Of a stretch of DNA of 64,000 nt, positions 1 to 57,225 are shown one piece after another. The stretch lies in NCBI RefSeq assembly GCF_049337375.1, contig NZ_JBMPIV010000015.1; one strand, given 5' to 3'. The translations under genes and the position numbers were made by a program. Position 1 is the stretch's first letter; each line of letters begins with the position of its first letter. The notes under the pieces are model-generated. The model had not been told where the DNA came from, searched no databases, and saw nothing but the letters and a program-made list of their open reading frames with translations. This DNA comes from Nannocystis pusilla. Its GTDB lineage: Bacteria > Myxococcota_A > Polyangia > Nannocystales > Nannocystaceae.

Positions 1-38
1 CGAGAAGTCCCTGCGGACATGTCCCGAAGAACACCTGC

Positions 39-2820: not shown

Positions 2821-2960
2821 GCGACGGCTCGAGATGTCTGAAGAGACATGCTCTTCCGAGCATTGTCATGGAGACATGCTCCGCAGAGCATGACCCATGG
2901 AACATGGCGTTGGAGACATTCCATTTCAGGCGTCTCCGAGAGCGCCGCACTCCCCCGGCC
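2821..2960. repeat. Cluster of REP-like palindromes (GAGACATGCTC / GAGCATGTC units) downstream of the hydrolase gene
   Basis: Direct reading: gagacatgctcttccgagcattgtcatggagacatgctccgcagagcatgacccatggaacatgg. These are nested inverted repeats built on a CATG core. Confidence 0.8.
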
Positions 2961-3811
2961 GCCGCAGCGTGCTCGGGTCGACCCACCGGCCGCCCGCTTC
3001 GGGCGATGCGTCCGCGCGGCGCGAGGCAGGGCTCGGCCGCGGCGGCCCGACGCGAACGGGCAGGCACCCCGCGCCTCTGGCTCGGCCGCGACGGGGCAGG
3101 GACCGCGTCCCGGGCTCTCGGCGCACACCAGCCGATCCCGACCCGGCAGGTCCGCTGCGCCGTCGTGGCCGTCGCGCCGGGCGCCGACGCGCGTCGAATC
3201 GCCGGCCGCGCTCCGTTCCAGCCTCGCTGAACCGGACAGTCGTACTCCGCCGCGGCGCCGAGACCGTCGTGCCGATCGGCGCACTGCGCTTCGTCCGTCG
3301 GCTCCAGCGCTCACCGAGCGACGTCGCCTGCGCCGCCCCGCGATCGAACAACGCGTTTCACTTCGCCTCGACCGCCGACGCGGGCCACGAATGACGCCGC
3401 AAGAATCGGCCCGCGCGCGCCGACCGAGCCTGAAGGGACAGGCGGCGGGCCGACCGACCTCATCGACCGTGCAGCCGCGAGCGCGGGTCAACCTCGCGAC
3501 CGACGACCGTGCTCCGACGAGCCTCGCTCCGGCTCGGCGCCGCGGGCCCGCAGCAAACGCCTCGGCGTGCCTCTCCGCCGCAAGGGAAGGGCGACCGGCT
3601 CGGCGCCGACGCCAGGCCGTCGCCGTCCTTCTTCATGCTTCATCGCGCCGGGCCTGTGCCGCGCATCACCGATGCGTCGCAGCGACCTTCTTACACCGGC
3701 GATGCTCGCCCACATCCCCGGGCGGCCCGAGCTCGCGATCGTCGCGTCGCGCCGGGACCGCCAGCGCTTCGCTTCCTTGATCTCCTCCGCGTGCTCTGGC
3801 AGCATGATGCT

Positions 3812-4786
3812 GTGCGGTTAGGTCTTGGCGCGCGCCCGGCGGGCGTCGCCGTTCTCTTCTCGTGGCTGGTAGCGACCGGGTGTAGCCCCGGGCGGTCCGA
3901 CGCGGCCTCGCGCGGCACCGACGGCGAGGGCAGCACCGTGGCGACCGCCGGCGAGGGCAGCACCACCGGCACCGCCGGCAGCACGAGCACCGGCGACGCC
4001 GCCACCAGCACGCCGGTCACCGGCACCGGCGCCCTCGTCACGCCGCCGCCCGACCTCGCGCCCGAGCTCCCGCCCGCGCCCGTCGAGCCGTGCGAGTCGC
4101 ACGCGGTCGAGGCCGACTGCGACGCCGCCGGTTGCATCTGGTTCGCCACCGAGCGCCTCGCCGATCGCTCGACCTGCGCCTTCGAGGCTGCGGGCTTCTG
4201 CGCCACCGCCAGCGCCTCGACCGGCGACGAGGACTACGACTCCACCTTCTACAAGCGGGTCGGCGACGTCGTCCACGTCCGCCGCGTCGGTCGCAAGGCC
4301 GGCGAATTCCCCGGCCCCGAGCATCCTGCGGGCTGGACCGAGTGCGGCCTCGGCTCGCAGGATCCCGAGGCGTGCGCCTGCGTGTGCGCGGCCGGCCGCT
4401 GTCCGGGTGACATCGCCCTCGCGCTGCTCGACGCCTGCGCCTCGCCGCGCCCGTGCGACGACGAGGTCGCCGGCGACGCCTGCCTCTACCAGGCGCTCGC
4501 CGCCGAGGCCGCCGCCAGCCTCCGCGTCGAGAGCCTCGTCGGCACCCGCGACATCGACGACCGCGTGTTCCTCCGCGGCGACGGCACCGCGACCTGGATG
4601 CGCAGCACCTGCGACCCGCGCGACGCCAGCTGCCGCGACCGCAAGTGGGAGCTGCCGCGCCTGTGCTCCCTGCGCGACCGCGCCGGCTTCCTCGCCTGCG
4701 CCGCGGCCGACCCGGCCGACCCGCAGTGCCGCGACGTGGCCGCCTGGTTCTCGGATTGCAAGCTGGCCCCCGCGACATGTCCGTAA
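3812..4786 (+). CDS. Cys-rich secreted lipoprotein, function unknown
   Basis: In-frame GTG at 3812 gives MRLGLGARPAGVAVLFSWLVATGCS, a signal peptide with an LVATGC lipobox. A Thr/Gly-rich linker is followed by about 20 Cys. Codon usage is consistent with real coding. The upstream part of ORF 3509..4786 was rejected. Confidence 0.5.
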   Translation: MRLGLGARPAGVAVLFSWLVATGCSPGRSDAASRGTDGEGSTVATAGEGSTTGTAGSTSTGDAATSTPVTGTGALVTPPPDLAPELPPAPVEPCESHAVEADCDAAGCIWFATERLADRSTCAFEAAGFCATASASTGDEDYDSTFYKRVGDVVHVRRVGRKAGEFPGPEHPAGWTECGLGSQDPEACACVCAAGRCPGDIALALLDACASPRPCDDEVAGDACLYQALAAEAAASLRVESLVGTRDIDDRVFLRGDGTATWMRSTCDPRDASCRDRKWELPRLCSLRDRAGFLACAAADPADPQCRDVAAWFSDCKLAPATCP

Positions 4787-5106
4787 GGGCAGCCTTCGGG
4801 CGCCGGCTGCGGCTGTCCTCGCAGACCTGTCCCATCGGCCAGCTCGCGTCCCACCGACTCGACTCGCGGCCGCCGAAGCTCCAGGCGTGAACGGTCCTCC
4901 GTCCGACCCGGCCGAGACGGCTCCGCGCCGGGCTCGACCGCCCGGTGATTTCGCCGCCCGCCAGCCGGCCGTCATCGAGCCCGAGGCCGTGTGAGGCGAC
5001 GAGCCCTGCCATCAAGCCTCGTTTTCGGTCGCCCTCCGCGGCCCTCGCCCGTTCGCGCGAAATCGCCCCTCGCACCTGCAGCACGACCTCGGCTACCGTT
5101 CTCGCC

Positions 5107-12837: not shown

Positions 12838-14277
12838 ATGACATTCGCTTCGCATCGATGGACCTTCGCGCTCGTCGTCGCCTGCGGTTGCGGCGGCGGC
12901 AGCAACGACGCCGGATCGACGACCGACGGGCCGCAGACGACCACTACCTCGACGACGGCCTCGACCACCGACGACAGCGGCCTCACGACCACGACGACGA
13001 CAGCGAGCTCGTCCGCCGGCACCGACGAGCCCGCGCCCCCCACCACCGGACCGGGGACGACGACCGAGGCCACCAGCGACCCGACTGCGGCGACGACCGA
13101 GACCGGGACGACCGGCGAGCCGGTCGATCCGCCCGACCTGTGCGCCGGCCTGGTGCAGGACTTGATGGACCGGCCGATGACCCCGCTCGAAAAGCCCGAG
13201 GTGGGCGCGACCGTGGTCGACGCGGAGTTCGGCACCACGATCCGACGCATCAGCGGCGTGACCGCGATGGGCGCAAACCCGGTGGTCAAGCCGGCCTACA
13301 GCACGATCGCCGCGTGGAACACGGACGAGACGCGCCTCATCCTCTACGACGTGACGGAGGGCCACCTGCTCTACGACGGCAAGACCTACGAGTCCTTGAA
13401 AAAACTGCCGATCGATCCGCCGGACCTCGAGCAGTTCTACTGGCACGGCTCCGACCCCAGCATCGTGATGTTCATGCACGGCAAGACGCTGGTGCGCTTC
13501 GACGTCGACACCGAGGTCGAGGCGCCCGTGCACACCTTCGACTTCTGCGGCGGCCCTGTCAGCGGCGGCAGCGACCCGATGTTCTCGTCGTGGGATTCGA
13601 ACCGCTTCGGCTTCATCTGCGACGATCAAGTGTTCGTCTACGACGTCGCCACCGACGCGGTGCTCGGGCAGGTCACGCTCGACGAGAACCCGGCCCAGAT
13701 CGCGCCCAGCGGCTCGCTGGCGTACCTGAGCGATACTGGCCGCGTCGTCGATCCAGCGCTCGAGGTGCTGCGCACCCTCGATCTGCTCGAGCCGTGGGGC
13801 CACGCCTCGCTCGGCATGCTGGCGAACGGCCACGACACCTGGAACGGCTTCGTCTACGATCCGGGCCCCGGCGGCAACGACGACATCGGCGCGCTCGTGA
13901 CCTGGGACCTCACCGACGCGACCTCGCGGGTGATCATCGGCCCGAAGACCGGCTATCCCTATCCGCCGGCCGGCCACATCTCGGCGCTGGCGGTCCACCG
14001 GCCCGGCTGGGTCGTCGTCTCGACGATCGGCGATCCCGCCGGGCAGGGGCTCCTCGATCTCGAGCTGCTGCTGGCCGACACGAACACCGGCCAGGTGTGC
14101 CGCGTGGGCCGGCATCGCAGCTGCGGGCAGAACAACACCAACCTCGGCGAGCCGTACTGGGCCGCCCCGACCGCCGTCCCGAGCCCGAGCGGCACGCGGA
14201 TCCTGTTCGGCAGCGACTGGGGCGGCGGCGAGACCGTCGACGCCTACGTGGTCGAGCTGCCGAGCTACACGCCCTGA
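12838..14277 (+). CDS. Lipoprotein with Thr-rich linker and predicted beta-propeller-like domain, function unknown
   Basis: Signal peptide with lipobox (ALVVACGCGGG). T/S-rich linker. Globular domain with repeated WxxD/DGxxxxF blade-like segments. 479 aa. Confidence 0.75.
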   Translation: MTFASHRWTFALVVACGCGGGSNDAGSTTDGPQTTTTSTTASTTDDSGLTTTTTTASSSAGTDEPAPPTTGPGTTTEATSDPTAATTETGTTGEPVDPPDLCAGLVQDLMDRPMTPLEKPEVGATVVDAEFGTTIRRISGVTAMGANPVVKPAYSTIAAWNTDETRLILYDVTEGHLLYDGKTYESLKKLPIDPPDLEQFYWHGSDPSIVMFMHGKTLVRFDVDTEVEAPVHTFDFCGGPVSGGSDPMFSSWDSNRFGFICDDQVFVYDVATDAVLGQVTLDENPAQIAPSGSLAYLSDTGRVVDPALEVLRTLDLLEPWGHASLGMLANGHDTWNGFVYDPGPGGNDDIGALVTWDLTDATSRVIIGPKTGYPYPPAGHISALAVHRPGWVVVSTIGDPAGQGLLDLELLLADTNTGQVCRVGRHRSCGQNNTNLGEPYWAAPTAVPSPSGTRILFGSDWGGGETVDAYVVELPSYTP

Positions 14278-14282
14278 GCGGG

Positions 14283-14385
14283 CGCCTGTCCTTGCAGACA
14301 TCCGCGATCCCGCACCGGCGCGGATGTCCGCAGGGACAGGTCACCTCTCGAGCGGCTCGTCTGTCCGCGAAGACAGGCGGGCCTC
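14283..14385. repeat. Compound REP-like hairpin between convergent genes (terminator-like)
   Basis: CCTGTCCTTGCAGACATCCGCG - 12 nt - CGCGGATGTCCGCAGGGACAGG (20/22 bp inverted repeat), followed by CTGTCCGCGAAGACAG. Lies between the stop of the 12838..14277 gene and the stop of the 14395..15105 gene. Confidence 0.8.
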
Positions 14386-14394
14386 CTCGCCGGA

Positions 14395-15105
14395 TCAGCG
14401 CGGCCCGTAGATCACGTCCGATCGCACCGCATACTTCACGCCGGCCGTCACCTCCGCGCCCTCGTGGAGCAGCAGGTGATCGAACACTACCGCGCCGCCG
14501 ACCGGGGGCTTCAGCGCGAACCTCACCTTGTTGTCGAACTTGCGCCCGCGACCCTGGCCGCGGCGCTGCGACTTGTCCTTCTCCTCAAAAAAGCGGGTCG
14601 CGCCGCCCTCGAACTCGGCGTTGAGAAAGATGACCAGCGACTCGCGCGTCTCGCCGAGCGGCACCGCGGTGCGGACATCGACGTGCGGTGAGAAGCGCAT
14701 CCCGACCTCGTAGCGGTACACGCGGAAGCGGAAGTTGAGCCCGCGCAGCGGCGCCCCCTCGTGCTGCGGACCTACGACCCCGCGGATCCGCTGCCACAGC
14801 CCGTCCGCCAGCTCCGGCGCGTCGAACACCACCCGGAGGTTGTTGCGGGCCGCCAGGTTGACCCGGTACGTGTCGTCGCCGATCGCCAGGCCCGCGTGGG
14901 TGAAGCCGATCGCCTCCGCCGCCGCGATCAGTCGCTTGCACTCTTTCGGCGACATCACCCCGTGGAGCACATGCACCCCCGGCGCCACCTCTTCGCGGCG
15001 GGCGGTCGCCTCGCGGTCCGCCTCCAGGACCGCCTCCGTCAGCGCGTAGGGCGCCGCGTGGAACGTCGCCTCGCGGCGGAACGACTCGTGCTCGCGGCTC
15101 CGCAT
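14395..15105 (-). CDS. 2OG-Fe(II) oxygenase superfamily protein (prolyl 4-hydroxylase-like)
   Basis: HxD...H iron-binding facial triad (RFSPHVDVRT ... DHLLLHEG) with an R-x-S-type 2OG-binding region (YAVRSD). Start chosen at ATG 15105 (MRSREHES); the longer ORF to 15240 was not excluded. Confidence 0.65.
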   Translation of the reverse strand: MRSREHESFRREATFHAAPYALTEAVLEADREATARREEVAPGVHVLHGVMSPKECKRLIAAAEAIGFTHAGLAIGDDTYRVNLAARNNLRVVFDAPELADGLWQRIRGVVGPQHEGAPLRGLNFRFRVYRYEVGMRFSPHVDVRTAVPLGETRESLVIFLNAEFEGGATRFFEEKDKSQRRGQGRGRKFDNKVRFALKPPVGGAVVFDHLLLHEGAEVTAGVKYAVRSDVIYGPR

Positions 15106-15290
15106 CCCCTTGCCTCGGCTCACGGTCCTCCTTTTATCACGCCCCCATGCGGCCCTCCGCGGTGCGGACATTCGACCGCGAGAGCGCCGCTCGCGCAGGC
15201 CCTCGAACGGCTCAAACTGCCTCCAGCCCGCCGCCTGCACGGACTTTTCCTGAGCTTGCTCAGCATATCGGCCTCGGCTAGTGTCGTCTC

Positions 15291-17198
15291 GTGGCCAACT
15301 ACTTCGACGACAACGAAGACCTCCAGTTCTACATGGATCGCGGCCTCGACTGGGCGCCGATCGTCGGGCTCGTCGAGCAGGACTTCCGCATCCCGGGCGG
15401 TTACGCCTCGCTGGACGAGGCGCGGGCCGCCTACCGCGACATCCTCGGCATGGTCGGTGAGTTCGCCGCCGAGCAGGTCGCGCCGAAGTCGATGGCCATC
15501 GACGCCAAGGGCGTCCACTTGAAGGACGGCGAGGGTCACCTCGCGCCCGAGACCGACGCCCTGTTCGAGCAGATCAAGGGCCTCGACCTCCACGGTCTGG
15601 CCTTGCCGCGCGAGCTCGGCGGCATCGGCTGCCCCGCGGTCGTCCACTTCATGGTGTGCGAGCTGCTGGCGCGGGCCGACAACGTCGTCATGACGCACTA
15701 CAACTTCTACAGCGGCATCGCCCTGATGCTCCTGCTGTACTCGGTGCACGAGGGCTCCACCACCTTCGACCGCGAGCAGCGGGTCATCACCGGCACGCGC
15801 TTCCAGCCCGAGATCGCCGAGATCCTGCGCGGCGACGCGTGGGGCAGCATGGACATCACCGAGCCCGACGCCGGCAGCGACATGGCCGCGCTCAAGGCCC
15901 GCGCCGAGCAGGACGAAGAGGGCAACTGGTTCATCACCGGCCAGAAGATCTTCTTGACCTCCGGCCACGGCAAGCACCACATCGTCATCGCCCGCACCGA
16001 GCCCGACAAGCCCGGCCTCGGCGGCCTGTCGCTGTTCCACGTCCCGGCCTACGAGGACATGCCCGACGGCACGCGGCGCCGGATCGCCGTGATCGACCGC
16101 CTCGAGGAGAAGCTCGGCCACCACGGCTCGGCCACCGCCGCGGTCAGCTTCGACCGCGCCCCCGGCCGCCTGATCGGCAAGCGCGGCGAGGGCTTCCAGC
16201 TCATGCTGCTGCTGATGAACAACGCCCGCGTCGGCGTCGGCTTCGAGTCGATCGGCGCCTGCGAGGCCGCCTACCGCAAGGCCAAGGCCTACGCGGCCGA
16301 GCGCCGCAGCATGGGCAAGTCGATCGATCGCCACGAGATGATCGCCGACTTCCTCGACGAGATGCAGACCGAGATCCTCGGCCTGCGCGCGCTCGCCATG
16401 CAGTGCGCCTACCACGAGGAGCTGCACCAGCGCACCAAGATGCAGGGCGTGCTCGACACCGACCCCGACAGCATCGAGCGGGCGCGCGTGCTCAAGCAGG
16501 CCAAGCGCCACGCCAACCGGGCCCGCCGGCTCACCCCGCTGCTCAAGTACATCGCCAGCGAGAAGGCCGTCGAGATGGCGCGCAAGTGCATCCAGATCCT
16601 CGGCGGCGCCGGCTACGTCCGCGAGTACGGGGCCGAGAAGCTGCTGCGCGACGCCATGGTCCTGCCGATCTACGAGGGCACCAGCCAGATCCAGTCGCTC
16701 ATGGCGATGAAGGACGCGATGAGCGGCATCATGCGCAACCCGCAGCGCTTCCTCACCCGCGTGGCGCAGGCCCGCTGGCGCAGCCTCTCCGCCCTCGACG
16801 CGCTCGAGCGCCGCGTCGCGCGCCTCACCTCGCTGACGCTCGCCGCCCAGCAGCACCTGATCCAGCGCACCGCCGCCGACAAGCTGCGCGGCCTCGGCAA
16901 GCACAAGATCACCGAGTGGTCCAAGGAGTTCTTCCAGAACTGGGACCCCAAGCGCGACTTCTCCTACGCCATGCTGCACGCCGAGCGGCTGACGCGCCTG
17001 ATGGCCGACACCGCGATCGTCGAGATCCTCCTCGAGCAGTCGCGCAAGCACCCGGAGCGGCGCAGCATCCTCGAGCGCTGGCTCGAGCGCGCCGAACCGC
17101 GCTGCAACGCCCTCTACGAGGAGATCACGACCCGGGGCGACCGCCTGCTGGCCCAGCTGCGCGACCAGCAGGAGGACGAGGCCGCCTCGGCTCGCTGA
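15291..17198 (+). CDS. Acyl-CoA dehydrogenase (long FadE-like form)
   Basis: 635 aa. ACAD N-terminal, middle and C-terminal domain signatures ([55 protein letters not shown]). GTG start. Confidence 0.9.
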
Positions 17199-17301
17199 GC
17201 CCCGCGGTCCCTGTCGGCGCCGGCCGGTCTGCCGCGAGCGGGCCGCGCCGGCGCGCGCATTTCGGGCCAGCGGCCGCGAGATCGGGTACCGTCCGGCCCC
17301 C

Positions 17302-19134
17302 ATGGCCGTCCGCTTCCGATCCGCCGCCGAGCCGCGCCCCGCGACCGCCCGCCGCGGACGGGCGCGCGAGGCCACCACGGACGAGCCGGGCGCACCCGCC
17401 GAGCCGCGCCCCGCGACCGCCCGCCGCGGACGGGCGCGCAAGGCCACCACGGACGAGCCGGGCCTGCCCGCCGAGTCGCGCCCCGCGACCGCCCGACGCG
17501 GACGGGCGCGCAAGACCACCACGGACGAGCCGGGCGCACCCGCCGAGCCGCGCCCCGCGACCGCCCGCCGCGGACGGGCGCGCAAGGCCACCACGGACGA
17601 GCCGGGCGCACCCGCCGAGCCGCGTCGACCCACACCGCGGCCCCGTCGCACCGGCGGTAGCGAGCGGACCCGGGAGGCCGCTGCGGACGAGTCGCAGTCT
17701 GCGACCACCCGGCGCGTGCGGGCCCATGCGACCTCGGGCGCCGAGCCGCGCCGAGCCGCGCGGTCGAGCGTGCGTGAAGCCGCGCCCGCCAAGTCGCGCC
17801 CAGCCGCGCCGAAGAACGAACGTACCCCCGAGGTCGCGCCCACCGAGCCGCGACCTGCCCGGCGCGTGCAGGGTGGGGTGGCCACCGCCGACGTCGTCGT
17901 GTCCGCGCGGGTCGGCGACAACGCCGAGCTGTTCGCCCAGGTCCTCGAGTTACATGTCCCGAAGGGCAGCACCGTCGCCGACGTCACCTACGGCCTCGGC
18001 GTGTTCTGGCGCCGCGTCCCCGACGGGGCCTACACCCTGCTCGCCAGCGACATCGCCCTCAAGCCGGATGTCCCCGCGCGCGCCGGCGCGAAGCTGACGA
18101 GCGGCGTCGACTGCCGCGCCTTGCCGTACGCCGACGCCAGCCTCGACTGCGTCGTCCTCGACCCGCCCTACATGGAGGGCATGTACCGCCGCAGCGTCGA
18201 CCACATGGCCGGCTCCGGCACCCACGCCGCCTTCCGCCGCGCCTATTCGGCGGCCGCCGTCACCGAGTCGGGCCCCAAGTGGCACGACGCCGTCGTCGAC
18301 CTCTACGAAAAGGCCTGCCGCGAGGCCGCGCGCGTGCTCGTGCCCGGCGGCGTCCTGATCGTCAAGTGCCAGGACGAGGTCAGCGCCAACAAGCAGCGCC
18401 TCACCCACGTCGAGCTGATCACGGGCGGCGAGTCGCTCGGCCTCTACTGCAAGGACCTGTTCGTACTCGTGCGCCCCAACAGCCCCGGGGTCAGCCGGCT
18501 CAAGGCCCAGGTCCACGCGCGCAAGAACCACTCCTACTTCCTCGTGTTCGAGAAGCGTCGCCTGGCGATCCGCAGCGTCCGCGACTTCACGGCCGGCGCC
18601 GACATGTCCGCGAGGACAGCCACGGTCGTCCCCGAGAAGATGACCGAAGAGACAGGCGCGGGCCCGAGCAGGAAACGACGCAAGCCGGCCACCGAGAGCG
18701 CTGGCGGCGGCGGACCGTCCTCAAGGCGAGGTCCGTCGAAGTCCGAGGCGCCGGCCGAGCCCGCAGCGGAGACGGTCGCCCGAACCGGGACCCCGGGCGC
18801 GCTCGCCAGCGCGAGCCCCGCCGAAGCGAGTATGTCCCAAGGTGCAGGTGCACCGGCGCTCGCCCCCCCACGCAGCGAGCCGAGCGAGCCGCAGCCCCCC
18901 GGTGTGCCCATGCCCCTCGGGACAGGTTTGCTCGCACCCGAGCGCCCACCGGGCGCATCGACGACGCGACCCGTGAACAGCGACCTGTCCCTCGAGACAG
19001 CCACCCGCACCGCCACGGCCTCGCCTCCGGCTCAACTGCCGCTCCTCGACCTGTCCCAAGCGCCAGCCCCCAAATCCTCCCCGGGCCGACCTCGCCGCCG
19101 CCCGGCCAAGGCGGGGCAGGGGGGGGGCGGTTGA
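17302..19134 (+). CDS. SAM-dependent methyltransferase with DPPY catalytic motif (N6-adenine/N4-cytosine-like or rRNA m2G-like), N-terminal basic tandem repeats and C-terminal Pro-rich tail
   Basis: Five 20-aa repeats of [24 protein letters not shown] (60-bp DNA tandem repeats, 17330-17640). A core with a putative SAM loop ([12 protein letters not shown]) about 60 aa before [13 protein letters not shown], in gamma-class motif order. No adjacent restriction enzyme gene. Confidence 0.6.
17330..17640. repeat. 60-bp coding tandem repeat x5 (AT-hook-like basic repeats of the methyltransferase)
   Basis: ccgccgagccgcgccccgcgaccgcccgccgcggacgggcgcgca(a/g)ggccaccacggacgagccgggc units read directly from the sequence. 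Confidence 0.85.
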
Positions 19135-19303: not shown

Positions 19304-20713
<1,410 letters not shown>

Positions 20714-20722
20714 CGGAGAGCG

Positions 20723-21778
20723 ATGGAAGCCGTCTTCAAGCAGCACTTCTGGGTCGTCAAGGCGCTGGGCCTCAGCGTCGCCGCTGCGTTCGCCGCCTCG
20801 GCGTTCACCACCTGGCTCGGCACCTCGTACATCTACGAGACCCCGACCGACGAGGCCGAGGCGACCGGCACCGACACCGACGGCGCCAAGGAAGAAGAAG
20901 AGGACGAGGAGGACAAGCCGATCATCAACCCGCGGCTGATGTCGAGCCCCTCGCGCGGCCCCTCCGCGGCCGACCGCAACAAGGTCACGCAGACCATCCT
21001 CTCGCTCAACCTGTTCTGCCCGACCTGCACCAAGGTCGTCACGCCCGAGACCGGCCCCGGCGGCCCCGCGGTCGCGCCCGACCTCGGCCCCGGCGAGCTG
21101 CCGCAGGTCGCAGGCGGCAAGCAGCCCGGCGAAGGCCCGTGCACGCAGCCGCTGCGGCTCATCGCCACGATGGAGACCAACATGCCCGAGTACTCTTGGG
21201 CGACCATCCGCGACGAGGAGGACGGCAGCGTCGGTCCGTACTGGCCCGGCGATCGCATCCGCTCCGGCGTCTACCTCGTCAGCGTCGAGCGCAGCCTCGT
21301 CCACGTCAAGAACGGCGGCGCCCTCGAGTACATCGAGCTCGGCGTCGAGCCGCCGAAGCCCTCGGCCAAGCCGTTGCAGGTGGCCGAGAAGAAGGAAGAC
21401 GCGCCGCCGGCGGCGGGCGCCATCCCCGGGGCCGAGGACGCGATCAAGTGCGAGAGCGAGAACTCGTGCACCGTCGATCGCATGTTCATCGACAGCCTGT
21501 TCGCCAACCCGGCCGCGCTGACCAAGCAGGCGCGGGTGATGCCGTCGATCAAGGACGGCGAGACCAAGGGCTTCAAGTTCTACGGGATCCGCCCGGGCAG
21601 CCTGCCCAAGCTGCTCGGCATGAAGAACGGCGACCTCCTCACCTCGGTCAACGGCATCGAGCTGAAGTCGGTCGACCAGGTCATGGGCCTTTTGACCAAG
21701 ATGCGCAGCGCCAGCAACCTCCAGGTCACGATTGAGCGCAAGGGCGAGTCGATCACCAAGGACATCACGATCCAATGA
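20723..21778 (+). CDS. gspC: Type II secretion system protein GspC (TM anchor, HR region, C-terminal PDZ)
   Basis: N-terminal TM helix, acidic linker, and a C-terminal PDZ-like domain (KGFKFYGIRPGSLPKLLGMKNGDLLTSVNGIEL). RBS GGAGAG. Stop overlaps gspD start (ATGA). Confidence 0.75.
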   Translation: MEAVFKQHFWVVKALGLSVAAAFAASAFTTWLGTSYIYETPTDEAEATGTDTDGAKEEEEDEEDKPIINPRLMSSPSRGPSAADRNKVTQTILSLNLFCPTCTKVVTPETGPGGPAVAPDLGPGELPQVAGGKQPGEGPCTQPLRLIATMETNMPEYSWATIRDEEDGSVGPYWPGDRIRSGVYLVSVERSLVHVKNGGALEYIELGVEPPKPSAKPLQVAEKKEDAPPAAGAIPGAEDAIKCESENSCTVDRMFIDSLFANPAALTKQARVMPSIKDGETKGFKFYGIRPGSLPKLLGMKNGDLLTSVNGIELKSVDQVMGLLTKMRSASNLQVTIERKGESITKDITIQ

Positions 21779-24192: not shown

Positions 24193-24211
24193 AGCTATCC
24201 TGTTGTCTGAG

Positions 24212-26059: not shown

Positions 26060-26065
26060 CGAAGC

Positions 26066-28820: not shown

Positions 28821-28821
28821 C

Positions 28822-37203: not shown

Positions 37204-37367
37204 GGCGCAGAACATCGAACCGCGGCGCGTGACCACGGTTCATCGACTTCGAAGACTGTCCCGAAGGACATGTCGTGTCTCTCCAGCGCCGCCGCCCCCG
37301 CGCGCGTGGGAGCGCGCGTCGGGTGACATCGCGGCAGCGTGTTACGCTCGCGCCTTCGGAGGGTGCG

Positions 37368-39809: not shown

Positions 39810-40136
39810 ATGCACCGCCTCACGCCCGGGCTCGCCGGGTTCGCCCTGGTCCTCGCGGCCTGCACCGGCTCGGCTCGGCCGCCCCAACCTGTCCCGGAGG
39901 ACAGTTCACCCGCGGCCGCGCCGGCCGCAGTCGGCCCTGCGGATGCCGGCGGCTCGTGCTCGGCCAGCGCCGCGTGTCCGGGCGCCGCGCCGGCCCGTTG
40001 CGCTGGGCGCGGCGAGGGCCGCTGCCGCAGCGAAGACGGCGTGGGCTGCCGCTTCGAGCCGAAGTCGGGCCCCCCGCAGGTCCGCTGCTGCGACGGCTCG
40101 GAAACTTGCACGTTCACGCCGCTGCCGGGCGCGTGA
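39810..40136 (+). CDS. Small Cys-rich lipoprotein
   Basis: Strong RBS AGGAGGG. Signal peptide plus lipobox (LVLAACTG). 8 Cys in 108 aa. Confidence 0.5.
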   Translation: MHRLTPGLAGFALVLAACTGSARPPQPVPEDSSPAAAPAAVGPADAGGSCSASAACPGAAPARCAGRGEGRCRSEDGVGCRFEPKSGPPQVRCCDGSETCTFTPLPGA

Positions 40137-40149: not shown

Positions 40150-40292
40150 GTCCGCCGGAATCTGCGCTTCCGGCGAGGTCCTGGATGACCTGTCCGCGAG
40201 GACATGTGCTTCGGGCAATGTCCGGGCGGCCCGGTGCTAGGCGGTTGAGCTGTCCGCAGAGACCTGCTCTTCGGGCAATGTCCCGGCGACCA
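40150..40292. repeat. Cluster of three REP-like palindromes between convergent genes
   Basis: gacctgtccgcgaggacatgtgcttcgggcaatgtccgggcgg ... gagctgtccgcagagacctgctcttcgggcaatgtcccggcg. The last unit supplies the C-terminal 18 codons and the stop of the 40237..41280 gene. Confidence 0.8.
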
Positions 40293-41280
40293 GGTGCTCG
40301 AGCCAGGCGGCGAAGCGCGGGCCGGTGAGCCCGTGGCCGAGGTGGTAGCGCAGCTCGGCCTCGACCGCGCCGCGCCACGCCTCGAGCTCGCCCGAGCCGG
40401 CCAGCAGCTCGCCGACCGTGACGTCGCCGAGGCCGGCGACCGCCTCGGTGAGGACGGCTTCGACCTCGGCGGGCAGGCGGTCCCAGGCTGCCACTGCGAC
40501 CAGCGCGGCCTGGACGTCGGCCGCGACCACGGCCGGGTCGAGCTTGACGAGCTCGGCGTGGACGGCCGACTCCGGCAGATCGAGCAGCGAGGCGAGGACG
40601 TCGGCGCGGAAGGCCGCGCCCTCGCCGGCGTGCTTGGGGTCGCTGACGCGGTCGACGATCATGTCGATCACGCGACCGACGGCGCCGTCGACGAAGCCGC
40701 GCACGCGGTCCTCGACCGAGGCGTCGAGCCCGACCACGGAGGCCACGCCCTTGGCGACGCCGAACAGCTTCGAGGTGACGCCGGCGCCCGGGATCTTGCT
40801 GGTGTCCGGCAAGATCGAGCCGACCTTCTTGGCGAAGTCGAGCAGGGTGGTGTGGAGGATCGTGCGCGACAGGTCGCGCACGGTCGCTTGATCGACGACG
40901 GCTCGCACGAGCGCGCGGCTCGGCGTGTAGGGCCTGCGGACCACGGTGCGCAGCAGCGGCAGCAGGTCGCCGGGCAGCCGCGCGCGCAGCGTGCCCTGCC
41001 GCGGACGGATCCGGGCCAGAGCGTCGCGGAGGCGCTGCTCCAGCCACGTCGCGTGGGCGGGCGCGGCGGCGACGGCCTGCAGGCCGGTGACGATCAGCGG
41101 GGTCAGCCGGACGGGATCGATGAAGCGGCGCGCCGGCGCAGCGAGGACCTCGTCGACCAGCAGCGCTGCCAGCGCGGCGAGGTAGCGCGGCTCGTCGCGC
41201 AGTCGCGCGAGGAGGGCAGGGACGTGGGGCACGCCGGCCCTATACCAAGCTTCTCGCACGGGGGATACGCTGGTCCTCAC
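40237..41280 (-). CDS. Hypothetical protein
   Basis: 347-aa ORF with GTG start and coding-like composition. No recognisable motifs. The C-terminal tail is encoded by a repeat element. Confidence 0.5.
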   Translation of the reverse strand: MRTSVSPVREAWYRAGVPHVPALLARLRDEPRYLAALAALLVDEVLAAPARRFIDPVRLTPLIVTGLQAVAAAPAHATWLEQRLRDALARIRPRQGTLRARLPGDLLPLLRTVVRRPYTPSRALVRAVVDQATVRDLSRTILHTTLLDFAKKVGSILPDTSKIPGAGVTSKLFGVAKGVASVVGLDASVEDRVRGFVDGAVGRVIDMIVDRVSDPKHAGEGAAFRADVLASLLDLPESAVHAELVKLDPAVVAADVQAALVAVAAWDRLPAEVEAVLTEAVAGLGDVTVGELLAGSGELEAWRGAVEAELRYHLGHGLTGPRFAAWLEHLVAGTLPEEQVSADSSTA

Positions 41281-42367: not shown

Positions 42368-42545
42368 TATGGTCGAAGAGACATGTCCGGGCGGTCATGC
42401 CTGACGTCCCCTGCGAGCGCGGCTGGAGCCGGCCTGCGGAGCTGACGGACATGATCGGACGGACATGCCCGAAGCGCCATGCTGCTTCGGGCATGTCTTC
42501 GAGGACATGCCCGAAGCGACAGGCTCTCAGCTACCGGCGGTGAAG
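42368..42545. repeat. Cluster of REP-like palindromes between convergent genes
   Basis: gaagagacatgtccgggcggtcatgcc...gacggacatgatcggacggacatgcccgaagcgccatgctgcttcgggcatgtcttcgaggacatgcccgaagcgacagg, which form several overlapping hairpins. Confidence 0.8.
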
Positions 42546-45500: not shown

Positions 45501-48004
45501 GACTCGACCAGATCCTCGTCGGACGCGGCCTCCGGGGCGCTCGTGGCGACTTCGGCAGAGCTGGTCGAAGGGACAGGCTGGCTCGGCGCGGGCGCGACGG
45601 GGCTGGCCGAAGAGACAGGTGGGTTCGGCGCGGCCGCAGGGCGAGCGACGCCGTTGCTGGAGCCGTGCGCGGGGGTGGACTTGTCGGGGGCGGGGGAGGG
45701 CGCCACGCCGACGGGGATGCCGACGAGGGTGCGCCTGTCCCAATTGCCAGACGAGGTGTCCGAGTAGATCGGCACCCCGAGGGCCGGAGTCACCGGTCGG
45801 GGCGTGGTGGCCGGCGGCAGGATGATGAGCGGCGTGTCGGGGGCGATGGCCATCGCCGCCAGCGATGCGTTCTCGTCCTCGAAGCCGCCCGGGTCGATGA
45901 GCGGGGCGTCCGGGGCGACGGGGACGGGCGAGGGCCGCGTCGACGGTCGGTTGGCGGCCGCAGCGGCATCGGGCTCGGGCGCGCGGGAGTCGTACGCCGC
46001 CGTCTGGCGGTTCGCGGCGGCGGCGGGCGTGGGGGCGGGCTCGGTCCGGCGTCCCGCAGCGGCGTGGCTCGGGGTGTCGAGCTGGGGTGACCTGGTCGCA
46101 GAGACAGGTGTTGTGTCTGGGGCGGGGGCGCGGCGGGAGGGCGGGGGCGTAGCGGAGCTGTCCGTGGGGACAGGTGCCGGCGCGCCGGTGACGCCCGACG
46201 ACGCCGATGCTGCGCCTTGGCTGTCCTCAGGGACAGGTGTCGCGGTCGCTGGCGTGGAGCTCGTGGAGGCGGCCGTCCGGTCCGCGGCGGGGGGCACGGC
46301 GGCACGGACATCCCGGTCGGGCGCCGGCGAGCCGGCGGGAGTCGGCGCTGCGGGGGCGGCGGATGCCGGGTCGTTCCCCGCGCGGGCTCGGCTGCTCGAG
46401 TCGGTCGTCTCGTCGCGGCTGTCCTTGAGGGCAGGTGCGAGCGGTTCGCTCGAGCTGTCTCCGAGGGCAGGCGCGGTCGCGGCGGCGTCGGCGGACGCGC
46501 CCGTCCGCGGCGAGCCGGTCGCAGCCTCCGCTGGCGGCGGAGCGGCGCTGGACGGTGACCCCGTCGCGCGCGCCGCGGTGTTCGGTCCCGACATCGCCGC
46601 CGGTCGCGGGCCGGCCATCTGTCTGTCCGCTGGGACAGGTACGTCGGCCTGCAGCGCGTTGGCCAGCGGCCCCGGCGCGGCGGCAGTCGAAGCGGTCGTC
46701 CCGTCCGCCGCGACAGAGGCAGTCCGCGGGTCTGCCGCGGCACTCGAGCTCGCGGTGCCGGCGGCTGGCCCGGCCTCGGTGCCTTCTATCGCGTCGACGG
46801 ATCTGTCCCCGGAGACAGGAGCATCCGGGGGGCCAGCGGCGGGCGCCGATCGCTGCGCGGTGCCGGCGGTCTGGTCGACCGCAGCGCCGTCGGTCCGCGA
46901 CGAGCCGCGGGCAGGGCCCCCGGCCTCGACCTCCAGGCCATGGGTGGCGGCGGGCGCATCGGTGCGAGGGGCCGGAGCGCTGGACGTCGCGCTCCCGTCC
47001 GGGCGGGCCGCTCGGTCGGCGCCGGTGTTCGCCGCATCGGCGATTCGAGCGTCGACCGGCGTGTCCGCGCCGGACGGCTCCCGTCGGGCGTCGGCGTGCG
47101 ACCTGTCCGCAGGGACAGCCGCCTCTGTCGCTCGGTCGCCGGCCGGCCGCCTGTCCGCAGGAACAGCTGCCTCGGCGCGTGCATCCGCCGGCTGCCTGTC
47201 CGTAGAGACAGCTGACTCGGCGCGGGCTTCTGCTGGATGCCTGCCCGAAGGGACAGCTGCCTCGGCGCGAGCCTCGGTCGGCTGCCTGTCCATGGGAACA
47301 GCTGCCTCGGCGCGGGTCTCCGCCGGCTGCCTGTCCGCAGGGACAGCTGCCTCGGCGCGAGCCTCGGTCGGCTGCCTGCCCGAAGGGACAGCTGACTCGG
47401 CGCGGGCCTCTGCCGGATGCCTGTCCGCCGGGACAGGTGCTTCCGCCGCCCGCCTGTCCGCAGGGACAGCCGCTTCGCTCGGCCGCGGCTCGGCGGCGCC
47501 CGGGACCAGGCTGATCGTGATCGAGGCGGTGCGCAGCGCCTCGAGGTAGTCGAGCAGGATCAGGGCGTAGCGCGGGGCGAGGATCGAGCCGGTGCGCTCG
47601 GCGGCGATCTTGGCCAGGCAGCACTCGGGCGCGACGACCGGGTAGAAGCCGCGGACCATGCGGTAGAGCTGGCCGAGCTTGGCGTCGGGCAGGTCGGGGT
47701 GGACGGCGACGATCAGCCGGCCGTCCTCCTGCGCGAGCGGCATGGCCCAGCCGATGTCGACCAGGTCTCTCGGGACATGTTCCCAGGGACGGCTCGCCCC
47801 GCGCTCGAGCAGCCGCACCGGCGCGCCGGGCAGGCCGCAGGCGCTCTGCAGCAGGGCGTCGAGCTGCAGCGGGGTCATCAACCCGAGCTCGAGGATCGCG
47901 GTGTCGAGGCTGCCGCCGGCCAGCTGCTGCCGCCGGGTCGCGGCCTCGAGATCGGCGCGCGACAGCGGGCCGTTGGCTTCGAGGTGGCGCAGGAGGAGGC
48001 TCAA
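42527..48004 (-). CDS. Giant multidomain protein (about 1825 aa): N-terminal MshEN/T2SSE_N-like domain, about 1200 aa disordered Ala/Pro/Thr/Ser-rich region with 15-aa tandem repeats, possible GAF-like segment, C-terminal HEAT/PBS-lyase-like repeats
   Basis: The likely start is TTG 48004, overlapping the RDD gene stop (ATTGA). N-terminus: LSRADLEAATRRQQLAGGSLDTAILELGLMTPLQLDALLQ. C-terminus: repeated ...DPDVRLIATRVL... / ...DKHVREAALEAL... HEAT-like helices. Upstream in-frame codons (to 49204) overlap rsmE/RDD and are Arg-rich, so they were rejected. Confidence 0.7.
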   Translation of the reverse strand: MSLLLRHLEANGPLSRADLEAATRRQQLAGGSLDTAILELGLMTPLQLDALLQSACGLPGAPVRLLERGASRPWEHVPRDLVDIGWAMPLAQEDGRLIVAVHPDLPDAKLGQLYRMVRGFYPVVAPECCLAKIAAERTGSILAPRYALILLDYLEALRTASITISLVPGAAEPRPSEAAVPADRRAAEAPVPADRHPAEARAESAVPSGRQPTEARAEAAVPADRQPAETRAEAAVPMDRQPTEARAEAAVPSGRHPAEARAESAVSTDRQPADARAEAAVPADRRPAGDRATEAAVPADRSHADARREPSGADTPVDARIADAANTGADRAARPDGSATSSAPAPRTDAPAATHGLEVEAGGPARGSSRTDGAAVDQTAGTAQRSAPAAGPPDAPVSGDRSVDAIEGTEAGPAAGTASSSAAADPRTASVAADGTTASTAAAPGPLANALQADVPVPADRQMAGPRPAAMSGPNTAARATGSPSSAAPPPAEAATGSPRTGASADAAATAPALGDSSSEPLAPALKDSRDETTDSSSRARAGNDPASAAPAAPTPAGSPAPDRDVRAAVPPAADRTAASTSSTPATATPVPEDSQGAASASSGVTGAPAPVPTDSSATPPPSRRAPAPDTTPVSATRSPQLDTPSHAAAGRRTEPAPTPAAAANRQTAAYDSRAPEPDAAAAANRPSTRPSPVPVAPDAPLIDPGGFEDENASLAAMAIAPDTPLIILPPATTPRPVTPALGVPIYSDTSSGNWDRRTLVGIPVGVAPSPAPDKSTPAHGSSNGVARPAAAPNPPVSSASPVAPAPSQPVPSTSSAEVATSAPEAASDEDLVESSTRKPPAAPQPMVMTLAQRLDAARATLATARERDRITEALVRAAALIAPRVALFGVKREGLRVLAAPGSALRMSEGLVIPLPEGGLLDRAVSGQGPLHLLIEPSLSFAVGQPLGIPCIFEPVLAGGRTVLMLYLDRSGVAFDPRERTVLRELCDTARQSLEALLRLLGWVVPGGTPGAGPADRTRPSIRPHLATPIVTVDETDAPATTPPVSADSSESEPEPPAAEASAEPDEPEAPPTASGAASEPGFGDSNSLAGRLRSRANRGRAVITLKNPIRRDDPATVTPLPVRAESSALVRAQTLADEPPSPPADEPEYEDLTDDPDEPDSPPPRRDGPGLGLAPVPVPLGPENGQDSPLVARFAAMFTKPPLPAVTIDLSDRPNTFGHARSDSPEPPPASPQPEMPGWIATAEPSGIEDPLPVAAALRSAATAAEARVDHDPAATLPGAPRVVLEETTRASTRDDFDEWPRAASDTPTILDLSPPPTHEPLLVETRAAPDAKTVLDLPRVDSPVPPETLIPNLVAPPGTPGAGRRRRANEPAEDEPVLVIPKTLRRSGGLTATPHPMARRSDPDELEGGPTLSMPTTLIGPRSGRRRGKHDPRPDSSSSALTMPKLVREAEADDASAQSTARGAIPAEHAPEDMSLATGSKAQVDASGPGNAAEASGSIAAPPAADRPAAAPAAEPPASDEPSTEEPAATAEAASGAALDDREIDAVIEDFLQNPAEWTSVSRLRALDERGLARLAARFPGPIDLANATNFPPPSAHGPLLRACVELGHAVSPHVLALFASARPQIRFYAAFLFQELRDPKCLRPLGELAFDPDPDVRLIATRVLESYSRVPDFAAVAAEIRGELESSDRDRQLLAVEAAGTLRDTLAVPRLIDLLAVRDKHVREAALEALCSITAKHHGYRAQRWRAWYAEHGQEPRIEWVIDGLRHRDEAVRRWAADELARITGQRIPFPAEGDRRSRDLALRAWQAWWDSNREDFTAGS
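47095..47490. repeat. 45-bp coding tandem repeat (about 9 units), each unit containing a CTGTCC-N4-GGACAG palindrome
   Basis: Units such as gcctgtccgcagggacagctgcctcggcgcgagcctcggtcggct. Encodes AVPADRQPAEARAEA-type repeats in the giant minus-strand protein. Confidence 0.85.
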
Positions 48005-50777: not shown

Positions 50778-50991
50778 CGCCGGTCGCGGCCCACAGTCCG
50801 AATCGAGCTTTCTCCTGGCGCCCCGGCGCCTGTCGCGTCGAGGGTCGCACTGTCTCGGCGGCTCGCGTCGTGCCCGCTGAGAGCGCGAGGGACGCGGCGC
50901 GAAGTGCATCTGACCTTCGGGACAGGTCCCCTGGGACATCTGGTGGCGCCGCTTGTCGCGCAGCCTGGCCAGCGGGTATGGTGCGCCGGCG

Positions 50992-52089: not shown

Positions 52090-53541
52090 GTGAGCGTCGA
52101 TCCCGACCGGTTGCTCGAGTTGTTCCGCCGTCACCTCCCGCTGCGCGAAGGGTCCGTCGAGCTCGCGTTCGCGTCCGGCTACGACGCGCCCGTGTGGCGC
52201 AACGAGGCGGGCTATCCCGTCGTGGCCCTGCGGCTGACGACCTTCGAGCCGGTCGACGGCGTCATCCCGCTCGACGTCCGCGAGCAGGAGGTTTTCATCG
52301 GCGACGATCGCGAGCACGCACCCGAGCGCTGGCTGGCGTACGTCGAGGGCCACCTGCGGGCGATGCCCGCGATCCTCGCGCACTTCGGCGAACCCGACGC
52401 GATGCTGCCCTGCGACCTGTTCGGCTACGGGGCCGTGCTCGCCGACGAGGCGCTGCAGCGGGCCGACGACTTCGCCGCGGCGCTCCGCGATCCGGTTCGC
52501 CTGGCAGTCATGGACGAGGCCGCGCGCGAGGCCGAGTGGCGCGAGCGCCTCGAGCCGCTCGGTCTCGCCGATCACGTCGACGAGGTGCGGGCCATGGCGC
52601 GCGCGTCGATCCGCCTGCACCTGTCTCGCAGCGACGAGCTCGACGAGGACGATGACGACGATGCCGAGGTCGACGATGGGGAAGGCGACGATGAGGAAGG
52701 CGACGACGGCGACGACGCGGGGGCCGACAAGGACGACGACGACGACGGCGACGACGCGGGGGCCACTCATGAGCCCGGCCAGACGCGCCTGGGCGGTGCT
52801 CCCGACTTGCCGCGCGACCTGCCGTGGCCCGAGGTCGACGGCGTCTTGCTGACCTTCGTCGCCCAGTTCGACCTCGCCGAGCTCGCGGGCCGGCCCGCCG
52901 CGCGCGAGCTGCCCGCGCATGGCCTCCTGAGCTTCTTTTACGCCCCCATCCCGCCCGACGGCGTGCGCGGCCATCCGGTGCGGGTGCTCCATTTCACCGA
53001 CCTCGACGCGCTCGCGCGCCGTCCGGTGCCTCCGGGGGTCGAGCGGCTGAGCGCCTACGACATCGACGTCGCCGACGAGCGGCTGTACCCGTGCGTCGAC
53101 AGCTACTTCTTCTACGAGTCCTTGCTGCCCGAGGCGCGCGTCCTCGCGGTCCATCGTCAGCGTCAGCGGGGCGAGGGGGGCGAGCTCGTCCCGTTCAACC
53201 CGCTCGCGTACTTCATCGCCGAGTCCGGCGAGCTCGACGACCACGAGCGGCCGTACCACCGCCTGCTCGGCCACCCGGCCTCGATCCAGGGCGATCCGTA
53301 CCTCGACGTCGAGATCGACACTCGCCCCCAGGGCTGGGACGGGTGGGACGACGGCAGCCCGGAGGCGCTGGCGATCCGCCGGCGAGCGCTGCGCTGGCGG
53401 TTGCTGCTGCAGATCGACGCCACGGAGCGGGACGAGCTGCTGCTCAACCAGGACGGCGGCTTCTTCTACTTTTGGATCCCCGCCGACGCCCTGGCCGTCC
53501 ACGACTGGTCGCAGGCGCGCGGGGCGCTGCAGTGCCACTGA
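52090..53541 (+). CDS. DUF1963 (YwqG-like) domain protein with internal poly-acidic insert
   Basis: C-terminal HRLLGHPASIQGDP...GGFFYFWIPADAL matches the DUF1963 signature. An Asp/Glu/Gly-rich run lies at about 52640-52800. Confidence 0.75.
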   Translation: MSVDPDRLLELFRRHLPLREGSVELAFASGYDAPVWRNEAGYPVVALRLTTFEPVDGVIPLDVREQEVFIGDDREHAPERWLAYVEGHLRAMPAILAHFGEPDAMLPCDLFGYGAVLADEALQRADDFAAALRDPVRLAVMDEAAREAEWRERLEPLGLADHVDEVRAMARASIRLHLSRSDELDEDDDDDAEVDDGEGDDEEGDDGDDAGADKDDDDDGDDAGATHEPGQTRLGGAPDLPRDLPWPEVDGVLLTFVAQFDLAELAGRPAARELPAHGLLSFFYAPIPPDGVRGHPVRVLHFTDLDALARRPVPPGVERLSAYDIDVADERLYPCVDSYFFYESLLPEARVLAVHRQRQRGEGGELVPFNPLAYFIAESGELDDHERPYHRLLGHPASIQGDPYLDVEIDTRPQGWDGWDDGSPEALAIRRRALRWRLLLQIDATERDELLLNQDGGFFYFWIPADALAVHDWSQARGALQCH

Positions 53542-53600
53542 AGCGCATGTCCTGGAGAGCATGTCCGCGGGGACATGCTCTCCGGAGCATGGCCTCGAGA
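53538..53600. repeat. REP-like palindrome cluster between convergent genes
   Basis: cgcatgtcctggagagcatgtccgcggggacatgctctccggagcatggcctcgagagcatgctc. Lies between the DUF1963 stop (53541) and the MATE stop (53611). Confidence 0.8.
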
Positions 53601-57134: not shown

Positions 57135-57225
57135 AAACTACAGGACATGTCCTTCACGGCATGTTTTTGGGGACATGATGAAAAAGACATGGCGAAATGG
57201 GCATGTCCTTGCGGGCATACCCTCT
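57135..57225. repeat. REP-like palindrome cluster downstream of the UGPase gene
   Basis: caggacatgtccttcacggcatgtttttggggacatgatgaaaaagacatggcgaaatgggcatgtccttgcgggcatac. Confidence 0.75.

Follow-up and report, generated by a model that had tools for sequence, protein, structure and literature searches.

A Nannocystis family of REP/BIME-like palindromic hairpins concentrated at gene 3' ends

Repetitive extragenic palindromic (REP) sequences, and the bacterial interspersed mosaic elements (BIMEs) built from them, occur in Enterobacteria, Pseudomonas and Stenotrophomonas in association with REP-associated tyrosine transposases (RAYTs). REPs lie mainly between unidirectional and convergent open reading frames (ORFs; PMC3733652), and in E. 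coli REP/BIME elements have been shown to protect the upstream mRNA and to support partly Rho-dependent termination (PMC2817692, PMC3733652, bioRxiv 10.64898/2026.03.23.713779), so that a single element is both terminator and mRNA stabiliser (bioRxiv 10.64898/2026.03.23.713779). The present analysis concerns a family of short palindromic hairpins in a 64-kb stretch of Nannocystis pusilla DNA (the window), and in particular the element at 14283-14385 between two convergent genes. An earlier reading of the window from its letters alone (the sequence-only reading) had listed nine hairpin clusters, proposed that they favour gene 3' ends and convergent gaps, and suggested a role as REP-type mRNA 3' stabilisers or as factor-dependent or bidirectional terminators.

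The Nannocystis family has in common with REP/BIME that its imperfect palindromes are short, GC-rich and extremely numerous, its restriction to a species or genus, its compound clusters of regularly spaced copies, a location mainly in unidirectional or convergent gaps just past stop codons, the lack of a U-tract, and some copies that lie within ORFs or supply stop codons (PMC2817692, PMC3733652). It differs in its smaller unit, a fully symmetric hairpin of 14-24 nt whose loop is always 4 nt; in lacking the GTAG/CGTC head of the REP superfamilies of Di Nocera et al. (PMC3733652); in arms that are themselves palindromic, giving a 14-nt lattice; and in that about a third of its copies are intragenic, those compared with homologues or orthologues being substitution-born. 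Where RAYTs mobilise REP/BIME, a rayt gene encoding a Y1 transposase sits between two inverted REPs (PMC2817692), an arrangement not seen in 640 kb of sampled Nannocystis DNA. Among the defining properties of REPs, a short palindrome, more than 100 copies per genome, genus specificity and a preference for 3' ends and convergent gaps are all found; as to extragenic location, 64% of units are non-genic and 167/466 genic. The regular spacing of BIMEs is clear at 14 nt, and their alternating orientation is not assignable here since the unit is symmetric. The REP/BIME reading follows from copy number, genus restriction, compound clusters, post-stop and convergent position and missing U-tracts: the family probably works like REP/BIME, and is not classed as a RAYT-type REP. 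It represents a new repeat family for a familiar kind of element, with no new mechanism, and is apparently undescribed for Nannocystis.

Two further described systems resemble parts of the family. As in REPINs, in which REPs are paired (PMC3116915), the element at 14283-14340 consists of two inverted 22-nt units that a short spacer keeps apart and that fold together into a single long hairpin, whose conservation includes a compensatory change; unlike REPINs, the family has no single preferred doublet spacing (peaks at 14, 28, 42 and 56 nt) and no RAYT was identified in the DNA sampled. Rickettsia palindromic elements and the intragenic REPs of Thauera and Xanthomonas (PMC3733652) are translated palindromic repeats, comparable with the array at 47091-47477 and with a methyltransferase tail described below. 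Those elements are insertions of 100-150 bp or of a whole REP, whereas several Nannocystis genic copies lie in conserved domains without any insertion or deletion (indel).

Other parallels come from repeats of a different kind. The uptake signal sequences (USS) of Haemophilus and the DNA uptake sequences (DUS) of Neisseria occur roughly once per kb, both in genes, where they occupy tolerant codons and are gained by point mutation, and between genes, where two inverted copies downstream of a gene can make up a terminator-like hairpin; each USS or DUS is a single, asymmetric word. The Neisseria dRS3 element, of the dRS3/NIME arrays (NIME, Neisseria intergenic mosaic element), is a short inverted repeat with a variable spacer that occurs in arrays. 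The Nannocystis family resembles these systems in density, in its mixture of genic and intergenic copies, in post-gene hairpins and in arrays, and differs from USS/DUS in that every copy, including the genic ones, is already an inverted pair; to our knowledge, no link to competence has been made in Nannocystis. Terminator hairpins without a U-tract ('I-shaped') have been proposed for high-GC bacteria such as Mycobacterium, and their sequences are unrelated to each other. They share with the present family stable GC-rich stem-loops after stop codons without a U-tail, the Nannocystis genome being 70% GC, but Nannocystis reuses one stem sequence thousands of times, also within genes.

A symmetric hairpin unit of the genus Nannocystis

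The core unit is the hairpin TGTCC-N4-GGACA, usually in the longer form C(A/C)TGTCC…GGACA(T/G)G. With at most one mismatch allowed, 53 copies are present in the window against 1.65 expected from dinucleotide shuffles. The hairpins form one repeated REP-like family and are not independent terminators. The spacer is fixed: N4 alone is enriched in the window, other spacers within 0-15 nt, including those that keep the codon phase of N4, giving 0-4 matches each, and in all sampled DNA there are 466 units at N4 against 4-23 at other spacers. TGTCC is also the commonest stem among all perfect 4-nt-loop hairpins of the window, though it is AT-richer than the genome. Outside pairs the half-site is barely enriched, about 50 of the 85 occurrences of TGTCC (about 21 expected) being in hairpins. 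A relaxed unit, TGYYY-N4-RRRCA, was dropped as noisy (81 matches, and about 30 in shuffles) and the strict core retained.

The consensus of 297 intergenic copies, GG(G/A)C(A/C)TGTCC-N4-GGACA(T/G)G(C/T)CC, is fully symmetric, and a position-frequency matrix of the same copies has no GTAG/CGTC tag within 14 nt on either side. The unit comprises a 7-10-bp stem and a 4-nt loop, 18-24 nt overall, at the short end of the REP range of about 20-40 nt, and the consensus 24-mer folds at -11.7 kcal/mol with DNA parameters. The palindrome does not extend into the loop, where complementarity of positions 1/4 and 2/3 stays at the expected level. The arms are halves of a 10-bp palindrome, GGRCATGYCC, and distances between neighbouring units peak at 14, 28, 42 and 56 nt; compound clusters are therefore runs of GGRCATGYCC, separated by variable 4-nt spacers, on a 14-nt lattice. 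On such a lattice adjacent arms have two registers open to them for pairing, or may join up in a longer stem, as at 14283-14340, and one guess is that arrays grow in 14-nt steps by slippage between palindromic arms.

Two likenesses of the arm palindrome were observed. GGRCATGYCC (for example at window 15-24, 43571-43580 and 57143-57152) matches the consensus of the p53 half-site of eukaryotes, RRRCATGYYY, and the RCATGY at its centre has the pattern of a type II restriction site. Chance is almost certainly behind both likenesses, which could mislead motif searches.

A scan for the 16-base pattern GCATGTCC-N4-GGACATGC was made over one genome per species in 185,579 species. Among the 120 matches listed, 69 come from six Nannocystis species, and the other 51 are singletons from unrelated taxa, as chance predicts; the 8-kb loci around these listed matches average 4-7 units each in Nannocystis, and hold only the seed elsewhere. 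In 21-kb loci, relatives with 75% and 65% orthologue identity have no units and Sorangium has one, while a metagenome-assembled genome (MAG) of the Nannocystaceae has four units in 15 kb. The hairpin family is thus a set of short palindromic repeats specific to the genus Nannocystis. In Nannocystis DNA not selected for the motif the density is 0.37-0.92 units/kb, which, extrapolated over an 11-13-Mb genome, means thousands of copies per genome. Rfam 15 gave nothing at gathering score, the sole match at E<1 being an unrelated chance match at 15852-15933, and a literature search found no paper on these repeats in Nannocystis or other myxobacteria.

Gene 3' ends and the convergent gap at 14283-14385

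Position relative to genes was assessed in 69 independent 8-kb Nannocystis loci with every seed-holding gap set aside, using a codon-usage gene caller that reproduced 59/60 NCBI stops in four Nannocystis loci and called no extra genes. Convergent gaps carry 6.15 units/kb (18/33 occupied), tandem gaps 1.94 (40/177), divergent gaps 0.55 (11/82) and genes 0.30 units/kb, the difference in occupancy between convergent and divergent gaps being significant at p = 2e-5. The gaps that hold the seeds are themselves distributed as 47 convergent, 14 tandem and 1 divergent, where 9.9, 33 and 19.2 are expected from gap lengths. In the window alone, 4/5 convergent and 0/6 divergent gaps are occupied (p = 0.015), and the bias towards gene 3' ends and convergent gaps that the sequence-only reading had proposed therefore holds both there and across the genus. 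Non-genic DNA, which is 16% of the total, contains 64% of units, a strong enrichment. In tandem gaps the units lie closer to the upstream stop (median 74 nt) than to the next start (162 nt), and the median distance from a stop to the first unit is 25 nt.

A density order of convergent, tandem, divergent, then genic DNA is exactly what is expected if these are selfish or neutral repeats without host function, the 3' bias being a map of tolerance in which copies arise everywhere and survive where they do least harm, downstream of genes and above all in promoter-free convergent gaps. This explanation, which is considered unlikely, accounts less well for the crowding at stops, since in gaps of at least 200 nt 39% of first units begin no more than 30 nt from the stop, against 8-10% under uniform placement in promoter-free DNA.

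The flagged stretch sits in a 117-nt convergent gap between the stop of gene 12838-14277(+) and that of a 2-oxoglutarate (2OG)-Fe(II) oxygenase gene, and holds three hairpin units: TGTCCttgcAGACA (14287), TGTCCgcagGGACA (14325) and TGTCCgcgaAGACA (14362). Each 22-nt copy in 14283-14340 contains one TGTCC-N4-(G/A)GACA unit (14287-14300 and 14325-14338), and the pair folds either as a single 22-bp imperfect stem with a 12-nt loop, as the sequence-only reading had correctly described it, or as two small hairpins in the manner of a REPIN. The RNA fold of 14278-14394 reaches -75 kcal/mol, with z = -6.2 on the + strand and z = -4.4 on the - strand, and DNA parameters yield the same structure (z = -3.9). 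The long stem is kept in N. pusilla and in Nannocystis sp. ILAH1, where it shows one compensatory pair (ATCCGCG/CGCGGAT to ATCCACG/CGTGGAT), and the loops change between genomes from gcag to ccgg and from gcga to tcaa.

On the other side of the gap, the oxygenase gene (orthologues in loci L001, L125, L126 and L127) is followed by a family hairpin 10-30 nt past its stop in 5/5 Nannocystis genomes compared. The subtype (CCTGTCT... or CATGTCT...) and loop of this hairpin vary between genomes, and it is present even where the flanks can no longer be aligned, two of the five genomes having another sequence and another neighbour gene downstream. Retention of a post-stop hairpin by the same gene in five species despite such flanks speaks against a mere map of tolerance, which is in turn favoured by the turnover of clusters between species: at the flagged locus, the orthologous stop is followed in N. 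exedens by one hairpin of another kind, and in SCPEA4 by no hairpin.

In the orthologous clusters of ILAH1 and N. pusilla the arms are preserved, and it is the loops and spacers that vary. Pooled over orthologous intergenic pairs, changes occur at 7/80 arm, 11/32 loop and 73/288 flank positions (p = 0.003 and 0.001), a contrast that is partly ascertainment, intact copies having been chosen in one genome. Between the window and a close relative, 1/90 arm positions are changed against about 20% in flanks, which exceeds the ascertainment bias. Homologues place the window in Nannocystis, an exact-sequence look-up of two of its proteins having given no match, and over 29 kb its identity to N. pusilla Na p29 is 97.5% (the stretches compared being window 53512-61564 with locus L044 and window 6516-29146 with locus L125); coding DNA beside the clusters is nearly identical, and the spacers between arms, like other intergenic DNA such as 57230-57290, differ at 15-25%. 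Loops and flanks that diverge 3-4 times faster than arms are again not what neutral survival predicts, and arm conservation, together with a family hairpin after the same stop in five species, argues that the elements are maintained.

No presence/absence polymorphism was found between the window and Na p29 in 29 kb, so that direct evidence for recent movement is lacking. Of 26 genes with units on either side, none is transposase-like, no transposase was seen among the window genes, and no target-site footprint of mobilisation was seen. The lack of a mobilising enzyme or footprint in the sampled DNA is a further difficulty for a selfish origin.

Canonical intrinsic termination is excluded by missing U-tracts: no hairpin-plus-U-tract pattern matches at any cluster, as the sequence-only reading had also claimed, and matches across the window are at or below shuffle level. 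GC-rich stems right after stop codons are what ordinary intrinsic (Rho-independent) terminators that merely look alike would present, and that explanation is nevertheless very improbable, given the absent U-tracts, the one stem sequence common to thousands of copies and the third of copies that lie within genes.

Genic copies and the weighing of function

The genic copies have their own properties. They are evenly distributed along genes and use rare A/T-ending codons; they avoid the frame encoding Cys-Pro-x-Gly, and are translated either as (M/L)-S-x-(R/G)-T or as x-V-(P/L)-x-D. Some occupy variable tails and linkers, others conserved domains. Between species they are gained and lost by point substitution. 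Their arms changed at 10/230 positions, a rate that after ascertainment is not clearly below half that of the flanks. The window contains about 22 intragenic units in addition to a 9-copy 45-nt tandem array. The unit at 19394-19415, which falls in a sigma-54 activator's receiver domain, shows no indel against solved homologues, the rare codons are GTT, ACA and GCT, and the unit is conserved in four other Nannocystis genomes.

These copies bring in an explanation at the level of DNA, in which the TGTCC-N4-GGACA duplex would be bound by a dimeric protein of high abundance (for example a factor of nucleoid or gyrase type, as for BIMEs) or kept by molecular drive, as are uptake sequences and HIP1, the 3' hairpins being a by-product of the stacking of such words where they are tolerated. 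Its symmetric consensus, specific arms and free 4-nt spacer agree with such a word, the same geometry being that of the FNR/CRP-type site TTGAT-N4-ATCAA, as do the lack of a G·U excess on the sense strand, a 15-fold genic enrichment that is even along genes, genic copies in conserved domains without indels and with rare codons, and their coming and going by point substitution. The density, about 0.4-0.9/kb, fits as well, the densities of USS, DUS and HIP1 being similar. Base-pairing rather than independent half-sites is favoured by paired double variants, which are over-represented (TGCCC/GGGCA in 11 copies, TGTCT/AGACA in 6), by covariation of positions -1/+1 in intergenic copies (138 complementary against 105.6 expected), and by the compensatory change in the outer stem; moreover, a 14-nt lattice does not fit the helical repeat, and genic arm conservation, once ascertainment is allowed for, is not clear. 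This explanation is judged somewhat less likely even than neutral survival. A similarly low probability is given to the related proposal that the palindrome is not primarily a mobile extragenic repeat and is a genome-wide Nannocystis signature word, written by point substitution into coding and non-coding DNA alike and maintained through a sequence-specific protein or a molecular drive (biased uptake or repair, or short-patch conversion from thousands of copies), in the manner of USS/DUS or cyanobacterial HIP1, with the post-stop stacks as a secondary, terminator-like use.

The reading preferred here, and on balance a probable one, is that of a REP/BIME-like family with an RNA-level role in stabilising 3' ends or in factor-dependent, bidirectional termination. 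If the E. coli elements are a guide, the clusters would be transcribed as mRNA 3' ends, where their stable stem-loops may block 3'-to-5' exonucleases; they could also serve as leaky, factor-assisted terminators that need no U-tract, and in this way may insulate convergent or tandem transcription units. Either role, mRNA 3' stabiliser or factor-dependent terminator, is plausible for the elements described.

Several observations weigh against this RNA-level reading. With 167/466 units, 36% of copies are genic, about 15-fold above the roughly 9.5 at control spacers, and the small number of them that were set against homologues or orthologues arose by point substitution, with no indels and not by insertion. 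A role in 3' untranslated regions (3' UTRs), or a purely extragenic picture of terminators or mobile insertions, does not explain them; the sequence-only account of extragenic 3' ends stands for the bias in position, and overlooked this genic third. The ranking of convergent, tandem, divergent and genic DNA is also predicted by simple insertion tolerance. A motif search of the six-frame translation of the 640 kb sampled (by regular expression) found no RAYT-like C-terminal motif. Folding of the nine clusters gave z -4 to -6 in five of them, and 1-40, 37249-37285 and 40150-40292 are not unusually stable as wholes (z -0.4 to -1.1). The consensus is symmetric on both strands and carries no RNA-specific signal, and on the sense strand there is no preference for G·U over A·C (30 and 39), a lack of strand asymmetry which also suits the tolerance map. 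A bias towards pyrimidine-rich loops on the sense strand was dropped, as it came mostly from long gaps and tandem arrays and was gone in gaps of at most 250 nt. Lastly, structure is not in excess at those tandem 3' ends that lack the family (16% with z < -2, and 12% in divergent gaps), so gene ends do not in general require a hairpin here; that family-free ends have no compensating structure is likewise expected of neutral repeats. The absence of other strong hairpins at such ends neither supports nor excludes a terminator role.

Clusters of the window, tandem arrays and neighbouring genes

Gene calls in the window were checked by Pfam and against the NCBI calls of syntenic Nannocystis loci. 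All nine clusters of the sequence-only reading are real and lie where it placed them, in the gene contexts it described, save that 40150-40292 is only mostly a convergent-gap cluster, its right part (40243-40298) being inside ORF 40237-41232(-); two intergenic sites, 39890-39903 and 50911-50938, had been missed. The features are collected in Table 1.

Table 1. Members of the hairpin family and related arrays in the window, with their gene contexts
Feature	Coordinates	Strand	Context
Two abutting units, AGTCCctgcGGACA / TGTCCcgaaGAACA, shared junction palindrome GGACATGTCC	6..33	.	Just past stop (39-41) of epimerase-CPBP gene 39-1607(-); cut by window edge
Alternating-arm array (GACATGCTC / GAGCATTGTC ...), 4-5-nt spacers	2834..2900	.	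Begins 49 nt past stop of hydrolase gene 1655-2785(+)
Three units	4773..4841	.	Loop of first unit (4778-4791) includes TAA (4784-4786), the stop codon of gene 3812-4786(+); fold z = -2.1
Flagged element, two inverted 22-nt copies 12 nt apart	14283..14340	.	Starts 6 nt past stop of gene 12838-14277(+)
Third unit of the flagged gap, GTCTGTCCgcgaAGACAGGC	14358..14379	.	Ends 16 nt short of stop of oxygenase gene 14395-15123(-)
Intragenic unit ACATGTCCgttcGGACAGCT (unit at 19398), reading N-M-S-V-R-T-A	19394..19415	+	Receiver domain of sigma-54 activator
Single unit CTGTCCcgaaGGACATG	37253..37274	.	50 nt past stop of sigma-54 response-regulator gene 35785-37203(+); z = -0.4
Single exact unit ACCTGTCCcggaGGACAGTT	39886..39907	.	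Convergent gap 39768-40236; newly recognised
Cluster with two ~56-nt direct repeats (40183-40238 and 40243-40298), 80% identical	40150..40298	.	Convergent gap
GRCATGYC-arm cluster	42368..42545	.	Between convergent genes 41343-42194(+) and 42527-(-); fold z = -5.4
Nine 45-nt tandem repeats, each with CTGTCC-N4-GGACAG	47091..47477	-	Open frame of large HEAT-repeat protein, low-complexity stretch
Two abutting units	50907..50942	.	Tandem gap upstream of meaB (51034-52002,+); newly recognised
Cluster	53538..53600	.	Fills 69-nt convergent gap between 52090-53541(+) and MatE gene 53611-55074(-); fold z = -5.8
Six RCATGY arms	57135..57225	.	65-155 nt downstream of stop (57290) of UGPase gene 57290-58414(-); z = -4.3 (- strand)

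Among the intergenic clusters, the array at 2834-2900 is stable both as RNA (z = -5.2) and as DNA (z = -4.2), and its ILAH1 orthologue keeps the arms and alters the spacers. The cluster at 53538-53600 holds a 12-bp perfect stem, GAGAGCATGTCC/GGACATGCTCTC; relative to Na p29, its arms are retained and its loops altered, and at 57135-57225 the arms are likewise retained and the spacers altered. The fold of 1-40 is weak (z = -1.1), as is that of the whole 40150-40292 cluster (z = -0.7), in which each ~56-nt repeat consists of one unit and a GC-TTCG-GGC hairpin, and the second repeat falls within the last ~20 codons of its ORF. Readings of the intergenic clusters as CRISPR, miniature inverted-repeat transposable elements (MITEs) or tandem protein repeats were ruled out by the 4-nt spacers, the lack of terminal inverted repeats and target-site duplications, and the location outside ORFs. 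After the hydrolase gene, 1 kb (2786-3811) yields neither a Pfam match nor a gene that can be called with confidence; ORF 2848-3780(+) matches no family, and NCBI calls just a 63-aa ORF in the ILAH1 orthologue.

The array at 47091-47477 is a related intragenic form of the family. It would encode 15-aa repeats, (Q/R)P(T/A)EARAEAAVPADR, and its frame-specific GC3 (GC at third codon positions) is weak, with a clear coding signal in the same frame on both sides. Further single units are scattered through the same low-complexity stretch of the HEAT-repeat gene, and also at 46159-46817 and 43576-44870. Long arrays in other Nannocystis loci (L038 4556-6357, L092 4310-4923, L005 1065-1275) have a unit every 42-56 nt within a longer repeated segment, CCTGTCCcttcGGACACC, for example, occurring six times in N. 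bainbridge; these arrays resemble the 45-nt array of the window.

Five 72-nt tandem repeats at 17252-17683 lie just upstream of, or form an N-terminal extension in, a DNA methyltransferase gene (PF01555; 17866-19134). The C-terminal tail of the methyltransferase (about 170 aa) is absent from ~250-aa homologues outside Nannocystis, and total protein length ranges from 344 to 552 aa among species, the variable tail containing 3-6 hairpin units. Beyond it, 19304-35621 comprises a complete type II secretion/pseudopilus cluster (GspD, E, F, G, J, K, a PilM-like protein and minor pseudopilins), preceded by one sigma-54 response regulator and followed by a second (35785-37203), and several of its genes have single intragenic units in N-terminal leaders or linkers (28303, 29608, 30354).

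Myxobacterial genomes are large and very GC-rich, their transcript ends are poorly understood, and canonical terminators are essentially absent in the window. A family present in about half of convergent and a quarter of tandem gaps provides a handle on transcription-unit boundaries in Nannocystis, and a test case for termination and mRNA 3' protection without U-tracts. It is also a clean genus-level marker for typing and for the binning of metagenomic contigs. Finally, its symmetry, 14-nt lattice and substitution-born genic copies offer a useful contrast to RAYT-driven REPs in considering how repeats spread.

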